From the NCBI GenBank assembly GCA_014728035.1, contig WJMJ01000059.1, positions 32,001 to 96,000 of the forward strand: a DNA stretch of 64,000 nucleotides, in the 5' to 3' direction. The translations under genes were made by a program, and so were the position numbers. This document shows, one piece after another, positions 264 to 27,905 of this stretch (positions are counted from its first letter, which is position 1; each line of letters opens with the position of its first letter). The notes beneath the pieces are model-generated. The model was not told where the DNA came from. It saw nothing but the letters and a program-made list of their open reading frames with translations, and made no database searches. This DNA comes from Promethearchaeota archaeon (lineage in GTDB: Archaea; Asgardarchaeota; Thorarchaeia; Thorarchaeales; Thorarchaeaceae).

Positions 264-878
264 TCACAGTTTTAGAGTGATTCCTCCATCCGCAAGAGAC
301 TCTTCAATGAGACTCTTCAGGGTGGAGATGTTTTTCTTTTTTGATGCAGAAATAGGAACGATTGTGGGTTCTCGTTCTACAACAGCCTCTCTAAGTTTGA
401 ATCTAAGATATTCTATTTCAGAAACAACCTCTCTTTTTCTAAGCTTGTCTCTTTTGTTAGCAACGACTATCACCCTTTTTGTTATCTCCGATAGAAAGGT
501 GTAGAACTCGATGTCAATAGGGATTTCTCCTCGCCCTTCCCATCTCTTCACCAATTCAGAAAATAGGGACAAGTCTACCACGAGAACTGCTAACATTATT
601 CTTTCAGCCCAATTTTCTAGGTTTTGAATTATTGATGTCTTTGTTTCTTCAATTTTCTGCTTGCTAGTTCCGGACATGAATCCGAACCCAGGAATGTCAA
701 CAATTGTAATTGGTCCAAAGTCTACCATATATTCTCTGGTTGTACTGCCAGGACTTTTTCCGATTCTTACTTTCTTACCTGTTAGAGCTCTAATTGTGCT
801 GCTTTTGCCAACATTGCTTCTGCCGGCAAATACTACGAGTGGTTTTTGTTTAGCCCCAAAATGGTCGTGTTCTGGCAT
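264..878 (-). CDS. engB: EngB/YihA-family GTPase
   Basis: GRSNVGKS (G1), PGST (G2), DIPGFG (G3), NKRD (G4), SA (G5). Confidence 0.9.
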   Translation of the reverse strand: MPEHDHFGAKQKPLVVFAGRSNVGKSSTIRALTGKKVRIGKSPGSTTREYMVDFGPITIVDIPGFGFMSGTSKQKIEETKTSIIQNLENWAERIMLAVLVVDLSLFSELVKRWEGRGEIPIDIEFYTFLSEITKRVIVVANKRDKLRKREVVSEIEYLRFKLREAVVEREPTIVPISASKKKNISTLKSLIEESLADGGITLKL

Positions 879-3693
879 ATTCTTGCTCTCCTTTTGCTAT
901 TGCCTTCAATAATGTATCTCTGTCATCCAGTCCTGGTTTGAGTATTCTTCCTGCTGTTGTCGGACCAATCCCTCTTCCAGCTAGAACAAGGAGGGCCTTC
1001 TTTCCATAAGTCGCAACCAAGTTTGCTGTTAGAGAACCTGCTAGAAACACTTTTTCTTCTTTCTTAGTAAGTGCTTCTGATGCTTTCCTTTTGCTCAAAA
1101 TCTTTTCAAAGTCTTTGTCTGATTGATGAAGGATTGCAATCATTGTCGAATCACACATGGGACAACTTATCCTATCATCCATTGTTGAGATTGTTCTGAT
1201 TGATGACCAATCTCCATTGACACAGATGAGTTTGAACCGCTTTGAGAGAAGTCTTTCTTCCATAACCCGTAGCACTTCTCCTTCTTCTGAAATCTCCCCC
1301 ATCACCTCAAACCTGGTTTTTTCTTCGATAACCAACCGAGCTAACGGGGATGGCTTTTCTGTTTTGGCAATTTCTATACGTAAAGTTCCTTCTGAGGCTT
1401 CATCAAATATCCGTTTTATTGTGTCTAAATCGAGTTTTTCTGTTAGAACCTCACGCATTGCTTCTTCATAGACCGGTGATTGTTCGTAATTATTAATTAT
1501 TCTTTTGAGAGGAAGCTCCTTCATTTTTGCATCACGACGAATGATATCCATACGTCTACCAACATGTACAAATCGAATTGCGAAGTTTTGTGTATGTTTA
1601 ATCGACTTTTGTAGAACGACGCTTATTTGGCTTGATTTGTATTCATATAGAATCTCTCTCAAATATGTGGGTTCGATTCTTGCTTGTGATGTGAATAGAA
1701 TTCTGTAGGGATCACGTTCAACCATGACATCGATGCCCAATCTTGTTGTAAGAAGTGCAGCTAATACTATGCCAAGTGTTTCATTTGCTTTAGTTCCTAT
1801 TGGAGCATGTAGAACTATCCCTTCCCCAAAGTCTTCAATAATGAATAGACTTTCTGTAGGAATATGTTTCAGGACTTTTTTGCTCTCTTGTATTTCATCA
1901 AATATGTGATTGAATGCATCTTGAGAAACACCATAGGATGATCTCAACCAATTAGCTCCTTCGATTTTGTTCTTAATGGCTAACTGCTTCCATACCTTTG
2001 CAACTTCTTGAGCGACTCTCAATGGGACCGGAATCATCTCCCCAATCCATCTAGGAGCCTCGATATTTGTTTCACTTGCTGGAGTACATAATATCTCTCC
2101 AGTGTCTTCATCAATTGCAACGACATGCCATGGACGCCCTTTAATCACAAAAACCGAGCCTTGCTCCATATCTGATAGCACGTAATCCTCGTCTAGCACT
2201 CCTATAGAAGACCGTGTTGACATGTCTATTGCATTGACTTTTTGTATGTCTGGAATCGTACTAAGATGATTGTAGTAGTATGATCGTGATCTCCGCCCTC
2301 TCTCAATGTATTCGTCAGTTATTTTTAGCAACTTTCTTTCCTGCATGAATGTAATTAGTTTGATGAATTCTTTTTCTGTGACTTCAATAAATGGAAATGG
2401 TTCTTTGATAAAATCATAAAGCTCGCTCTTTTCAATTCTGCCGAAATCCAGAAGGACACCAGCTATCTGATGATTCAGTACGTCCCATGCCTTTTGTGGT
2501 ATATCTGCATCTTCTACTTTGTTGACCTTAGACCTTCTAAGAATCACTCCTGATTCTGTAATGTCATCGACATTTGCGGTTGCAATGATTATACCTTTTG
2601 CAGTTCTTCCAAAACCATGCCCTGATCTTCCGATTCGTTGAAGTGCTCGTGATACCTCTCTTGGACTACTATATTGAATCACCAAATCGGTATCTCCTAT
2701 ATCTATGCCAAGCTCAAGACTTGATGTTGCGATAATTGCTTGCGATTGACCTGTTTTGAGTTTATTTTCTGCATCCAATCGAACTTCTTTCGATAACGAT
2801 CCATGATGAACATCGAAAACAAACTTAGGTCCCATAACCCTCATCTTAGATCCCAGCACTTCTGCAAAAGAACGTGTATTTGTGAATATTATGGTTGATT
2901 GGTGTGTATTTACTAATTCTATTATTCGTTCTAATCTTGCGGTAGAGTGTGGAGGATATGAAATCTTCTTTGCAGTTTTTTCATGCTGTTTTGTTGGTAG
3001 TGGCACTTCAACACTAATCTCCATCTCTCGCTTTTGATATCCTGCCCAAACTATTTTGGACGTCTTTGTTTTTCCAGAGAGCATTTTTGCAATCTCTTGG
3101 GGATTTCCCACTGTTGCGGATAGTCCAATTCTTTGGATTTTTTTACCAGTTAATCTTTCTAAACGTTCAAGGCCAAAACATAACTGAGTACCACGTTTAC
3201 TATCTGCTAACTCGTGAATTTCATCAATAATTACTGAAAACACGGTTCTAAGATGATAGCGCAGTCTTTTCCCGGGCAAAATGGCTTGAAGTGTTTCTGG
3301 TGTTGTTATTAGCAAATTTGGTGGTTTGATTGCTTGTTTCCGTCTTTGGTACTGAGTAGTATCTCCATGTCTTACATCCACTGTTAGTTCAAGATTGTGA
3401 CATATTTTTTGGATACGTTGAAAGACATCTCTGTTTAATGCTCGTAACGGCGTGACATAAATGATATAGAATCCAAAAATGTCCTTTTCTTCTCTTAGAA
3501 GTTCTATCTTTCGTAGTAGAGGAATTAATGCAGCTTCTGTTTTACCGCTACCAGTTGGAGCGAGAAGAAGAAAATTATCCGGCTGTTTCAAAATTTGTGG
3601 AATGGCCTTCTCTTGAATTGGTGTTGGTGTTGTTATTCCTTGATCATAAAGAATTTTTTCAATATTCTTTCCAAGTATCGAGAAAAAAGTCAT
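850..3693 (-). CDS. lhr: Lhr-family SF2 helicase
   Basis: APTGSGKT, TPLRALNRD, DEIH, SAT, HHGSL, SSLELGID, QRIGRSGH; C-terminal Cys motif and GRGIGP. Confidence 0.92.
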   Translation of the reverse strand: MTFFSILGKNIEKILYDQGITTPTPIQEKAIPQILKQPDNFLLLAPTGSGKTEAALIPLLRKIELLREEKDIFGFYIIYVTPLRALNRDVFQRIQKICHNLELTVDVRHGDTTQYQRRKQAIKPPNLLITTPETLQAILPGKRLRYHLRTVFSVIIDEIHELADSKRGTQLCFGLERLERLTGKKIQRIGLSATVGNPQEIAKMLSGKTKTSKIVWAGYQKREMEISVEVPLPTKQHEKTAKKISYPPHSTARLERIIELVNTHQSTIIFTNTRSFAEVLGSKMRVMGPKFVFDVHHGSLSKEVRLDAENKLKTGQSQAIIATSSLELGIDIGDTDLVIQYSSPREVSRALQRIGRSGHGFGRTAKGIIIATANVDDITESGVILRRSKVNKVEDADIPQKAWDVLNHQIAGVLLDFGRIEKSELYDFIKEPFPFIEVTEKEFIKLITFMQERKLLKITDEYIERGRRSRSYYYNHLSTIPDIQKVNAIDMSTRSSIGVLDEDYVLSDMEQGSVFVIKGRPWHVVAIDEDTGEILCTPASETNIEAPRWIGEMIPVPLRVAQEVAKVWKQLAIKNKIEGANWLRSSYGVSQDAFNHIFDEIQESKKVLKHIPTESLFIIEDFGEGIVLHAPIGTKANETLGIVLAALLTTRLGIDVMVERDPYRILFTSQARIEPTYLREILYEYKSSQISVVLQKSIKHTQNFAIRFVHVGRRMDIIRRDAKMKELPLKRIINNYEQSPVYEEAMREVLTEKLDLDTIKRIFDEASEGTLRIEIAKTEKPSPLARLVIEEKTRFEVMGEISEEGEVLRVMEERLLSKRFKLICVNGDWSSIRTISTMDDRISCPMCDSTMIAILHQSDKDFEKILSKRKASEALTKKEEKVFLAGSLTANLVATYGKKALLVLAGRGIGPTTAGRILKPGLDDRDTLLKAIAKGEQEYARTRPFWG

Positions 3694-3920
3694 TCCAAGA
3701 ACACCTTGTTTCTTAGATGTTTAAATTCACTAATCAAGATGCGTATATCAGTTTGGATTGTAATGTCCTTGTCTTTCTTTTCCTTTTCTAAAGCTTGGAT
3801 ATATCGGGAGGGTACTATTTCAGAACTCACCAATTGCTCTATTAGGTTCTTCATATATTCTAAATTCATTATATGTGGTGCAATGTTTTCAAAGGCTAGT
3901 CTAAGCAAGGATTCGTTCAT
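3690..3920 (-). CDS. Small hypothetical protein, translationally coupled to lhr
   Basis: ATGA overlap with the lhr start; ATG at 3920 is the more likely start (ORF track gives 3962) because an upstream micro-ORF ends at 3940. Confidence 0.6.
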   Translation of the reverse strand: MNESLLRLAFENIAPHIMNLEYMKNLIEQLVSSEIVPSRYIQALEKEKKDKDITIQTDIRILISEFKHLRNKVFLE

Positions 3921-3939
3921 GACGAAGTCCTTCTTACAG

Positions 3940-4059
3940 CTACTCCTCCTTTTCTTCGCCATACACCATATAGGCCATTACTAGGATTAGAGCTGATATC
4001 CCCATTACGTTGAACAATACAAACAGAATACTTTGAATGGTGTCAATGGTTTCTTGCAT
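3940..4059 (-). CDS. 39-aa single-TM micro-protein, OST4-like candidate (not in ORF track)
   Basis: Manual translation MQETIDTIQSILFVLFNVMGISALILVMAYMVYGEEKEE*; GAGGAG about 11 nt upstream; TTATAA at 4090-4095. Confidence 0.65.
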   Translation of the reverse strand: MQETIDTIQSILFVLFNVMGISALILVMAYMVYGEEKEE

Positions 4060-4120
4060 CTTTATCTTGACTCCTCGACCATGTGCTGCTTATAATCATT
4101 GCTAGTGTTCGGAAGCTGTA

Positions 4121-4375
4121 TTAGGCAACCTCAGCTTTCCGACGTTCGTAGAAGATATCAATGAATGATCCATAGACATCAACGGCTTCTGTTAGAGTAT
4201 TGACTTCTTCAATGCTTTCTTCAAGTCCGCATGAGCCACATTTTACCGTGGCAAACTCATTATCGCGATAGACTTCGATTTTGATTGAGGTGTTTCCACA
4301 CTCTGGACAGGGATATACATCTGGAATTCTGCTTTGTGGGCGTCGTCTTACTTTCTGTCTGCGTCTTCTTCCCAT
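4121..4375 (-). CDS. elf1: Transcription elongation factor Elf1
   Basis: Basic N-terminus MGRRRR, CPEC...CGSC zinc ribbon, EAVDVYGSFID. Confidence 0.88.
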   Translation of the reverse strand: MGRRRRQKVRRRPQSRIPDVYPCPECGNTSIKIEVYRDNEFATVKCGSCGLEESIEEVNTLTEAVDVYGSFIDIFYERRKAEVA

Positions 4376-20933: not shown

Positions 20934-21356
20934 ATGACTGATAAGTGGCTCAGAATAATTGTCAAACCACAGGTGCGAATTGCAAGACCCCGATTTGGGG
21001 CTCCAACTCGGCCTCCAGCTATACTTTTGTTTGGAGTGGTCTTCATTACGGTCCTCTTCATTCTGGGCGGAAATATATACTCACTAGTCAATACACCTCC
21101 TCCAATTGCTAGTGGCTCCGATGGCTCTCCCATTTTAATTGCTCCTTCTATAGATGTTCAATTAGGAGTTGAAGGAATAGCTGCTTCAGTAATTCTTCTA
21201 GTAGGTGTGCTTGGTTTAGGCCTGATATTTTACGCTTCTAGATATGTATTCCAACCGGGGATGGCATGGCGTTTCATGGTATTAGGTATGATTATGTCCG
21301 GAGTAGCATATCTCTCAATTACCTATCTCTATTTGTTTAAGATTGGTCAATTGTAA
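20934..21356 (+). CDS. OSTC/DC2-like (OST3/OST6 family) oligosaccharyltransferase accessory subunit
   Basis: Three TM helices; FILGGNIY...PP, Q..VEGIAAS and G.LG motifs parallel to DC2; no thioredoxin domain. Confidence 0.8.
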   Translation: MTDKWLRIIVKPQVRIARPRFGAPTRPPAILLFGVVFITVLFILGGNIYSLVNTPPPIASGSDGSPILIAPSIDVQLGVEGIAASVILLVGVLGLGLIFYASRYVFQPGMAWRFMVLGMIMSGVAYLSITYLYLFKIGQL

Positions 21357-25033: not shown

Positions 25034-25142
25034 CATCAAATTCATTTATTCTGATAGGTCTCTTATACAACTAACGGCAACCTTTAAAGCACATCTAAGA
25101 TTGAACCGCTTGCATTCGAAGTCCGAATGGAGAGAACACTAT

Positions 25143-27905
25143 ATGTCAGGCTTCAATAAGTTCAAGAGATCATCTGAAAGATTCCTACGAAAGGTTTTCC
25201 ACAAACCGAAAGCAGAGATATCCCGCGGCTCGATTCTATTAGTGTTGGCACTCTCGATTATCTTCTTTGCAGCTCTGGGTCTTCGAGTATTCTCGTTATT
25301 AGACTCGCAGCCAATCGTGCGCGCGTTTGACCCATGGTTTCAATTGAAGGTTACAGAATATGTGTCCGACAATGGATTTGCCGCATTTTTCACATGGTAT
25401 GATGACACCACTTGGGTTCCATATGGTAGAGATATTGCTAGAACTACCTATATTGGTGTACCTTTTACAACTGCAGCATTCTATACATTGCTAAGTGGAC
25501 TCGGAATAAGTGTTGATATCATCACTGTTGCACTAGTTGTTCCTGCAGTTATGGGCGCTATGACCGTTTTTGTGGCATTCTTATTGGGTCGAGAGGCTTA
25601 CAACAATTCAGTAGGGTTACTAAGTGCTTTGTTTCTAGCTTTCATGCCTGCTTTCCTTCAGAGAACAATCGCTGGATTCTATGATAATGAATTCATTGGG
25701 GTCTTTGCAATTACTCTTTCATTATACTTCTTTATTAGAAGTATCAAGCGAGGATCACTTCCATCCGCAGTTGCAGCTGGATTGTCAGTTGCTTATCTTC
25801 AAGTATCATGGGGTGCTTCTGATTTCCTTACAGCTCTATTTGCTTTGTATGCGTTCTTCATGCTCATCTCTGGGAAATACAATACTCGTGTTCTTACTGC
25901 ATATCTTCCCACTCTCGCAATTGGGATGTTTGTTGGTGGATTAATTCCCCGGAATGGATTTGGAGACCTCACATCTTTCTCAACATTAGCTCCTATTGGA
26001 GTGGCTGGATTACTCGTGTTTTATGAAATTTGGATGCGGGTTCAGACACAAAGAGAAGCAACTGCGGTTGCTCTTGCTCCATACATGCGTCCGCTTCTTG
26101 CCGGAATAATTACACCTGTGATTGGCGTAGGTGCATATATGGCATATAGCAGTAGTAATGAGCTATCAATTGCCACTTCTAATCCCAACCCATTCTTGAC
26201 TATTGGTGGTAAATTCCTTACTGTTGTGAATCCATTCTATCGTTTAGACCAACGGATATTTGCATCTGTTGCCGAGCATCTTCCAAGCCCATGGGGAAGT
26301 TTCTATTACACACTACTTCTTCTAATCTTCTTCTTCCCACTTGGAATGTATTTTGCATTTCGTAGGGGCCGTGATGAAGATTGGTTGTTATTACTTTACG
26401 GTGTAGTTGCAGTGTACTTCACGGGCAGTATGATCCGACTAAGTTTGGTACTAGCACCTGGTGTAGCAATTCTTGCAGCTATTGCAGTAAACGGAATTCT
26501 CCAACCATTTGCTAAGGTTGTTACTGAGAATACTGTCTTTGAACGAAGAAGATTTAGAATGAGTGCATCTCTTACATCTGAACATGCTCTTGCTGCATTC
26601 TTCTTCATAGGTATTTTGCTTTCTGTTAACGTCTATATGGGAGCTCAATATGCTACTCAAGGTGTAAATCAACCTGAATTTGCACTTGCCCCACTATCAA
26701 GTCCAGGACAGGTTACTGATTGGCAGACAGCTATGACATATGTTCGTAACGTTCTTCCCGAAACTGCTGTAATTGGAAGCTGGTGGGATTATGGTTATTG
26801 GATAAATGGTGCTGGTGGAAAGGATACCATTGTAGATAATGCGACGTTTAATCAAACGCAAATTGCATTGATGGGGTACGCATTGATGGCTCTTAATCTG
26901 ACCGAGTCTCTTAAGACCTTTAGTCAGTGGAATACCACACATGTTCTTGTTTATTGGGGTCACCGCTTGAATTACTTTGGTGGTGACGAAGGTAAATGGC
27001 CATGGATGGTTAGAATTGCAGAAGATAGACTCGGCACAAGTGTGATAGATGATGCCACCTATCTTGGTGACGATCCAGACACACCTCAAGAAGAAACCGA
27101 GGCTGCACAAGAGGCATTCTACCAGTCTACTCTATACAAGTTGCTAACATATGGTGAACCAGTATCGGCCGAACAGGCTCAAAGTATGGGTCTTCCTGAC
27201 GGAAGAGTTTCAGTAGATACTGCAGATGGAAGCTATCTATCCGATCCTGATTGGACTTCCCATATTCCGAGAAGTCTCTATGGTGCGTTCAAGGGTCCAT
27301 ACTATAGTTCTTCATATGGTATAGTGAAAATCTATGAAATTGATTATACCATGTACTATCAGTACCTTAACAAGACCAAGGCTGATTACACACCCCTCAG
27401 AGGATCTCTGGAAGATGTGAATTTGGATGGGAACCTATCAGAAACAGAACAGAGTTATGATAGCTTTGATGTAGTCTTTGGTGGAGGTTACGATGCTACA
27501 GTATATTCCCAGTCAAATGGAACCCATATGTATTATGGAATCAAAATGGATAACTATACAGTGGGAGATGACTCAATCGGATTTCAATTTGCTCCCGCTG
27601 ACTCCAAAACCAGAACGGATCTCCGAATTGTAGATTATGCTGGTGAAGACTACTACGATGGCTACACTGACTATACTGGTGATTGGAATACAGACTCAAC
27701 TGGATCCAATCCTGAAGAAGTAGCGAAAAGCGATGGATTCATTGAGTATCTTATACCTTTGGATTCTGACGAGTCACAGGACCAAAACATGGAACCCGGA
27801 ATGAACTATCAGCTTCGTCTTCTCTTTTGGAACAACAGGAACAGTGGAGAACCGACTTATGCCTCAAACTGGGGTACTATTTGGATTCCAGTAATCCTCT
27901 ACTAA
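25143..27905 (+). CDS. aglB: Oligosaccharyltransferase catalytic subunit AglB/STT3
   Basis: FDPWF, DNE, SVAEH, WWDYG, DNATFNQT, DEGKWPWMVRI; multiple TM helices; start at ATG 25143. Confidence 0.96.
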   Translation: MSGFNKFKRSSERFLRKVFHKPKAEISRGSILLVLALSIIFFAALGLRVFSLLDSQPIVRAFDPWFQLKVTEYVSDNGFAAFFTWYDDTTWVPYGRDIARTTYIGVPFTTAAFYTLLSGLGISVDIITVALVVPAVMGAMTVFVAFLLGREAYNNSVGLLSALFLAFMPAFLQRTIAGFYDNEFIGVFAITLSLYFFIRSIKRGSLPSAVAAGLSVAYLQVSWGASDFLTALFALYAFFMLISGKYNTRVLTAYLPTLAIGMFVGGLIPRNGFGDLTSFSTLAPIGVAGLLVFYEIWMRVQTQREATAVALAPYMRPLLAGIITPVIGVGAYMAYSSSNELSIATSNPNPFLTIGGKFLTVVNPFYRLDQRIFASVAEHLPSPWGSFYYTLLLLIFFFPLGMYFAFRRGRDEDWLLLLYGVVAVYFTGSMIRLSLVLAPGVAILAAIAVNGILQPFAKVVTENTVFERRRFRMSASLTSEHALAAFFFIGILLSVNVYMGAQYATQGVNQPEFALAPLSSPGQVTDWQTAMTYVRNVLPETAVIGSWWDYGYWINGAGGKDTIVDNATFNQTQIALMGYALMALNLTESLKTFSQWNTTHVLVYWGHRLNYFGGDEGKWPWMVRIAEDRLGTSVIDDATYLGDDPDTPQEETEAAQEAFYQSTLYKLLTYGEPVSAEQAQSMGLPDGRVSVDTADGSYLSDPDWTSHIPRSLYGAFKGPYYSSSYGIVKIYEIDYTMYYQYLNKTKADYTPLRGSLEDVNLDGNLSETEQSYDSFDVVFGGGYDATVYSQSNGTHMYYGIKMDNYTVGDDSIGFQFAPADSKTRTDLRIVDYAGEDYYDGYTDYTGDWNTDSTGSNPEEVAKSDGFIEYLIPLDSDESQDQNMEPGMNYQLRLLFWNNRNSGEPTYASNWGTIWIPVILY

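Follow-up and report, generated by a model that had tools for sequence, protein, structure and literature searches.

The closest described relative, in form, of the protein reported here is OST4, a very small component of the eukaryotic N-glycosylation enzyme. OST4 is described as Nout-Cin, with its transmembrane (TM) helix at residues 10-28, and mutation of conserved residues toward its cytosolic end breaks the Stt3-Ost4-Ost3 subcomplex (PMC3687696). In the yeast protein, introducing charge at positions 18-24 is reported to break the same subcomplex; Ost4 occupies a site between TMH1 and TMH13 of Stt3 and supports Ost3/6 incorporation, and solved OST4 entries include 1RKL, 2LAT, 6EZN, 6C26 and 6S7O (PMC7226087). 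For Asgard archaea, Eme et al. (2023; PMC10307638) report Ost4 and Ost5 homologues "in most Asgard archaeal classes", found by profile-profile methods. The remark in an earlier note on the DNA studied here, that no OST4 was known to be established in these archaea, is thus out of date, and because a claim from homology searches is in print already (Eme et al. 2023, PMC10307638), an Asgard Ost4 as such adds little that is new. The accessions are given in Supplementary Table 3 of that paper, and the Thorarchaeia Ost4 reported there may be the gene described below. The two distributions are alike: most Asgard classes there, and most sampled Asgard families here.

We analyzed 64,000 nt of contig WJMJ01000059.1 from a genome of the Thorarchaeia, and the window refers to this whole stretch. 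Within it, a 39-aa frame had been proposed as a prokaryotic OST4 homologue. The features of the locus are:

850..3693, minus strand: Lhr-type helicase (Pfam DEAD, DEAD_assoc, Helicase_C and WH_Lhr)
3690..3920, minus strand: conserved 76-aa protein without a Pfam family, the downstream neighbor, starting 19 nt past the micro-ORF stop (tblastn)
3940..4059, minus strand: micro-protein gene, 39 aa, stop codon included (ORF, orthologues and codon statistics)
4071-4076, minus strand: GAGGAG, Shine-Dalgarno-like, -17 to -12 of the ATG
4090-4095, minus strand: TTATAA, TATA-like box and putative promoter, -36 to -31 of the ATG
4121..4375, minus strand: Elf1-type zinc-ribbon protein, 84 aa, the upstream neighbor (Pfam Zn_ribbon_Elf1, E 2.3e-17)

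The frame at 3940-4059 on the minus strand starts with ATG, stops with TAG and encodes MQETIDTIQSILFVLFNVMGISALILVMAYMVYGEEKEE. The product has a single hydrophobic stretch (mean Kyte-Doolittle value of 2.26 over residues 10-30) followed by an acidic tail; the predicted layout is a short acidic N-terminus, one TM helix and an acidic tail. The ORF with its GAGGAG and TTATAA, the one helix and the charged tail, as described in the earlier note, can all be read in the sequence.

Judged by comparative sequence evidence, 3940-4059 is a real gene. A six-frame search with the single protein identified orthologues in all 24 further genomes of its family; this search gave matches at E up to 10 in 28 of 41 genomes, those beyond the family and order being noise in long ORFs. 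A profile built from 20 Thorarchaeota orthologues (A1) recovers the micro-ORF in 26/26 sampled genomes of the family. The conservation of the ORF that the OST4 proposal called for is thus found. All 20 extracted orthologues have a Met-Gln start (ATG followed by CAA or CAG) and an open frame of 33-41 aa. Pairwise comparison of a 22-codon core counts 1641 differences at the first, 786 at the second and 2841 at the third codon position, which places third-position differences 3.6-fold above second-position differences, and the orthologue in the nearest genome is separated from the window gene by 11 synonymous versus 5 non-synonymous codon changes.

The suggestion that such a gene stays hidden from gene callers holds for the exact 39-aa peptide, which is absent from a 15-billion-protein collection, but not for its close relatives, at least 187 of which (E 0.01 or better, some of them with the label Thorarchaeota) have been called as proteins in public sets. 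When 1.84 billion representatives were searched exhaustively with a profile, only 20 matched at E 0.001 or better, 18 of them 29-54 aa long. The remaining two are P0121, a 2175-aa protein without an aligned stretch, and P0135, an 88-aa repeat protein; this search therefore yielded no fusion of the micro-protein to a larger protein. Alignment A4 omits P0121, P0135 and P0136.

A promoter of its own and a short leader are very probable for this gene, because a TATA-like hexamer occurs at a fixed distance, at -36/-37 (one at -38), in 20/20 orthologous Thorarchaeota loci. The hexamer is embedded in a conserved cagcaatgaTTATAAg context in these loci, and conservation of the TTATAA box is far above chance; a promoter function is what this constancy of position points to. 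The GAGGAG is kept only loosely among the orthologous loci, as a purine-rich stretch. If the TATA box is used, transcription probably starts downstream of the GAGGAG.

Elf1, the micro-ORF, the 76-aa gene and Lhr are all on the minus strand, and the 76-aa and Lhr genes overlap by 4 nt. Among 43 Thorarchaeota loci drawn from 32 genomes, the micro-ORF is accompanied by elf1 in 43, by the 76-aa gene in 40 (tblastn) and by Lhr in 41. A 90-aa form of the 76-aa protein, which has no Pfam match, overlaps the micro-ORF; the conserved start is the second ATG, giving 76 aa. Several Thorarchaeota loci (L003, L008, L009, L010, L011 and L017) carry a short inverted repeat of the cggga...tcccg type directly before the ATG of the gene downstream of the micro-ORF. 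This repeat might gate translation of that gene. In the window, the corresponding interval (3921-3939) has only GAAG...CTTC in its place.

Beyond the Thorarchaeota, profile and context comparisons identify the window protein as one member of an Asgard-wide family of one-helix proteins of 31-52 aa, whose lineages are joined by profile matches and by shared neighbors. The A1 profile gave weak matches to recurring small ORFs in other Asgard families (labelled f2, f3 and so on below). A broader profile, A3, had matches at E 0.05 or better in 79 of the 151 Asgard genomes sampled, including 3/3 genomes of f13, 4/4 of f15, 4/5 of f16, 5/6 of f19 and 7/7 of f22; elsewhere it matched single small ORFs. 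When alignments were compared directly with hhalign, the Thorarchaeota and f12 groups matched at 82% probability (E 1e-5) and f12 and f9 at 86% (E 4.6e-6), while Thorarchaeota and f9 reached only 35%. Tyr is the sole invariant residue across 30 family representatives. The shared pattern, by which we define the family, runs from a small residue through nine others to the Tyr and, a few residues on, ends in an acidic tail.

In most lineages the neighbors are an unnamed small gene and genes of the Lhr helicase, phosphoesterase and RPA types; AglB is never adjacent. The micro-ORF lies directly after the unnamed gene (110-150 aa) in f2, f3, f6, f12, f13, f19 and f21, adjoins Lhr in f8, f15, f16 and f18, and adjoins an RPA-like gene in f5 and f13; a Metallophos phosphoesterase is near it in several lineages. 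One example of each of the Lhr, RPA-like and phosphoesterase neighbors was confirmed by Pfam. In f12, the micro-ORF starts 28-76 nt past the end of the unnamed-gene match in 18/19 genomes. The unnamed protein itself is present in 19/19 f12 and 26/26 f9 genomes (for example, L111:2511-2957 and L106:2584-2982). By eye it suggested a SWIM-type zinc finger, an assignment we dropped as two members gave no Pfam match at E 0.001 or better. In f9, no micro-ORF follows the unnamed gene at the 25 loci read (of 26 genomes), and seven genomes carry a related ORF beside a gene for a YchF/Obg-like GTPase. There the micro-ORF is convergent to the GTPase gene and not near Lhr. In f22, the micro-ORF is near ribosomal genes.

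Comparison with OST4 relied on the Pfam Ost4 model (PF10215; cut-off 25 bits), applied only to single natural sequences. The model stood in for the human sequence to which the earlier note had aligned the protein without gaps (7 of 19 identical). The window protein has no match to this model at E up to 10, nor do any of the 20 Thorarchaeota genome orthologues match (0/20). Six-frame translation of the window protein's own genome gave no match (40 candidates scored), and none of 151 Asgard genomes translated in six frames exceeded the cut-off. Noise-level six-frame matches at E up to 1 occur in 89 of the 151 genomes and likewise in 7/14 control genomes. Most of the six-frame matches centre on Tyr-His. 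Of all matches at E up to 1 in the Asgard genomes, only two fall on the micro-ORF, both in f16. Two other small ORFs look OST4-like. L029 (G129 C541:3-56, truncated by the contig end), so judged by eye, has one of the better six-frame Ost4 scores (16.7 bits) and is unrelated to the f9 family; L091 (genome G100) is a singleton and was dropped.

Within the family, matches to Ost4 are weak and recurrent. Among 133 database relatives of the window protein, 3 match Ost4 (best E 0.019, P0125). Both f16 members have Ost4 as their top match (E 0.0055 and 0.0073), the single f8 member has it as its only match (E 0.17), and in f12 it is the commonest match (4/16, best E 0.21). Scores in the wider family peak at 17 bits, below the cut-off of 25. 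No Ost4 match was found in f2, f3, f5, f6, f9 (0/7 genes), f13, f15, f19, f21 or f22, so that 4 of the 14 lineages scanned (Thorarchaeota, f16, f8 and f12) show one; L103 (f17) and L110 (f20) are doubtful members left out of the 14, and L104 (f18) was outside the scan. Searches of a 5.8-billion-sequence database for true OST4 proteins list no relatives at 15 bits, given the E-values that apply at that size.

In the four alignments with coordinates, the family Tyr falls on position 25 of the Ost4 model and a Gly or Ser ten residues earlier on position 15, which is the register that the earlier note had proposed. The control consisted of 150 natural membrane segments of 37 aa, the first of 218 identified in long ORFs of the window protein's genome. 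These segments matched 72 Pfam families, and Ost4 is not among the 25 listed, so that Ost4 has no match up to E 0.025 and no more than one overall. The Ost4 signal in the family thus exceeds generic hydrophobicity, yet it is far from significance.

Likeness to OST4 extends to size and residue pattern. Both OST4 (yeast Ost4p included) and the window protein have about 36-39 aa, one TM helix and a short acidic N-terminal flank, and 128/133 relatives are 36-41 aa long, an OST4-like size with a single helix. The N-terminus of the window protein is five residues longer. Strongest conservation is at the C-terminal end of the helix, as in OST4, the most conserved stretch here being residues 23-30. 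Gly20, Tyr30 and Gly34 are invariant in 133/133 Thorarchaeota-type relatives, the alignment anchor itself having required Tyr and Gly34, and Ala23 is present in 130/133. The small residue and the Tyr ten apart in the relatives are the pair that falls on model positions 15 and 25. Provided that model positions track yeast numbering, positions 18-24 of yeast Ost4 would correspond to residues 23-29 here. Of the Asn, Gly and Tyr that the earlier note had stressed, Gly20 and Tyr30 proved constant but Asn did not: Asn occurs in 27/133 relatives and Ala in 65/133.

In OST4, a Tyr-His pair is conserved where the helix nears the cytosol. In the Thorarchaeota-type relatives, the residue after Tyr30 is Met, Thr, Ser, Ala or Ile in 133/133 and never His, a difference from OST4. 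A Tyr-His is present in f5, and in f12 [Tyr/Phe]-His occurs in 16/16 aligned members, with the His invariant. Membership of Pfam Ost4 fails for the Thorarchaeota proteins on two counts, a score under the model cut-off and the lacking His.

The tail is another difference. Mean net charge in Thorarchaeota is -1.1 for the N-terminal flank and -4.8 for the C-terminal flank and tail, whereas mammalian OST4 is described as fitting the positive-inside rule (PMC3687696). With so acidic a tail, the topology of the Thorarchaeota proteins is not readable from charge, and the rule gives no support. Several other lineages have a Lys or Arg just past the helix. In f9, 5/7 genes (L096, L177, L178, L179 and L181) encode an extra N-terminal hydrophobic segment after Lys/Arg. 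The segment resembles a signal peptide or a second helix. Its signal-like character suggests that the N-terminal flank lies outside.

Genes for partner subunits of OST4 are present in the same genome, a further likeness, and STT3, OST3_OST6 and Ost5 all score above their Pfam cut-offs. Two of them are in the window:

20934..21356, plus strand: Ost3/Ost6 (DC2-like) membrane-domain protein, 140 aa (PF04756, 30.8 bits, cut-off 27)
25101..27905, plus strand: AglB/STT3, the only STT3 match of the genome and the proposed partner (PF02516, 179.6 bits, match at 25236-26477)

The PF04756 match covers model positions 185-288 (window 21030-21341). The third, Ost5 (TMEM258), is a 67-aa ORF on another contig (G000 C94:45743-45925) that scores 30 bits, over the cut-off. 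Unlike Ost4, this Ost5-like subunit is detected directly by its curated Pfam model. A search for Ribophorin_I is uninformative, as it gave no match in the genome and the control was silent too. In 6/6 Thorarchaeota genomes, 18-21 kb separate the micro-ORF from AglB (21 kb in the window). Five genomes from other families have AglB on a different contig or at a distance of 108-404 kb; the nearness in Thorarchaeota reflects lineage synteny and not clustering of the genes.

Taken as a whole, the best single explanation, though not a proven one, is that the micro-protein is an archaeal counterpart of eukaryotic OST4, for which we see roughly an even chance. The link is drawn from sequence statistics, which are suggestive without establishing homology. 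For the proposal of a prokaryotic OST4 homologue, the weak matches in four lineages and the clean control speak in favor, but all matches are below the cut-off and none is on the window protein; in addition, and as a difference from OST4, the window gene sits among DNA-repair genes. Were the micro-protein an OST4 counterpart, its N-terminus would be outside and its acidic tail in the cytoplasm. A conserved face consisting of Gly20, Ala23, Leu24, Ala/Gly29, Tyr30 and Gly34 would pack on the catalytic AglB/STT3, with the helix occupying the OST4 site of AglB, between TMH1 and TMH13. The micro-protein could then stabilize AglB and help to hold the Ost3-like subunit. We infer each of these points: that the micro-protein descends from or is equivalent to OST4, that it has this topology and that it binds AglB.

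A serious competitor, which we consider possible at somewhat below an even chance, is an Asgard-specific one-helix micro-protein without common descent from OST4, serving as an accessory subunit or regulator of another membrane complex. The resemblance to OST4 would then have arisen by convergence of tightly packing short helices. Every Ost4 score being under threshold is in line with this, as is the strength of other families on many members, where DUF4500 (65 of the 133 relatives), Sarcolamban (E 0.0021), FeoB_associated (E 0.0053) and DUF3285 (E 0.00098) equal or beat Ost4. Weak matches to COX7a (27) and UL73 (11) were also seen among the 133. Searches of solved structures point the same way: the best match is helix 3 of MrpC (E 0.3-0.5), and no solved OST4 chain was retrieved at E up to 10 with profiles A1, A3 and A5 or with three single members. 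Neighbors of a homologue in the ESM Atlas are clusters of YldA and MgtS-like bacterial small proteins (scores <0.85), with no Ost4 among them, and the tail is acidic. Sarcolamban/phospholamban-type, MgtS-like and YldA proteins share the size class, the single helix and weak Pfam or Atlas matches with the micro-protein; however, these matches are not recurrent across lineages and none is significant. Against descent independent of OST4, no other Pfam family recurs in as many lineages as Ost4 (four, in one register), the control segments gave no Ost4 match at E 0.025 or better, and gene context suggests no alternative partner complex.

Two of the matches just named were considered as relatives in their own right. 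DUF4500, the commonest weak match in Thorarchaeota, was rejected because its matches cover residues 14-37 only, have E about 0.1 and do not recur in other lineages. Helix 3 of MrpC/NuoK (E 0.3-0.8) was read as a chance match.

It is improbable, in our estimate, that the micro-protein is instead an ancient Asgard membrane partner of the neighboring nucleic-acid genes and not an OST subunit, tethering or regulating an Lhr helicase/phosphoesterase/RPA module and co-transcribed with the 76-aa gene and Lhr. The only conserved gene context is of this kind: the Thorarchaeota order is kept in about 41-43 of 43 loci, and unnamed-gene, Lhr or RPA-like neighbors are found in f2, f3, f5, f6, f8, f12, f13, f15, f16, f18, f19 and f21. 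However, the peptide has unrelated neighbors in f9 and f22 (the YchF/Obg-like GTPase and ribosomal genes, respectively), and a shared promoter need not imply a shared function. We know of no Lhr, MPE or RPA system that requires a membrane peptide. If the partnership were true, it would imply a membrane-tethered machine for nucleic-acid repair or RNA processing.

Least probable by far, and already close to refuted, is the reading that no gene exists here and that the frame is open by chance or acts purely as a regulatory leader of the Lhr operon. The shortness of the frame and the absence of the exact peptide from the protein collection speak for it. Against it are the ATG-CAA/CAG start and open frame in 20/20 loci, the 3.6-fold third-position excess, the synonymous bias of the closest pair (11 versus 5), residues invariant across 133 relatives and homologues in many Asgard families.

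Returning to the micro-protein as a candidate OST4 counterpart, what this locus adds to the published claim is a well-defined gene, a conserved putative promoter and a residue-level picture of the family. It also adds a caution, as sequence alone is no proof of the OST4 link and the faithful neighbors are DNA-repair genes. If the micro-protein binds AglB as OST4 binds Stt3, the Stt3-Ost4-Ost3 core of the eukaryotic N-glycosylation enzyme would have been pre-assembled in Asgard archaea, which, if true, would bear on the origin of the eukaryotic secretory machinery.
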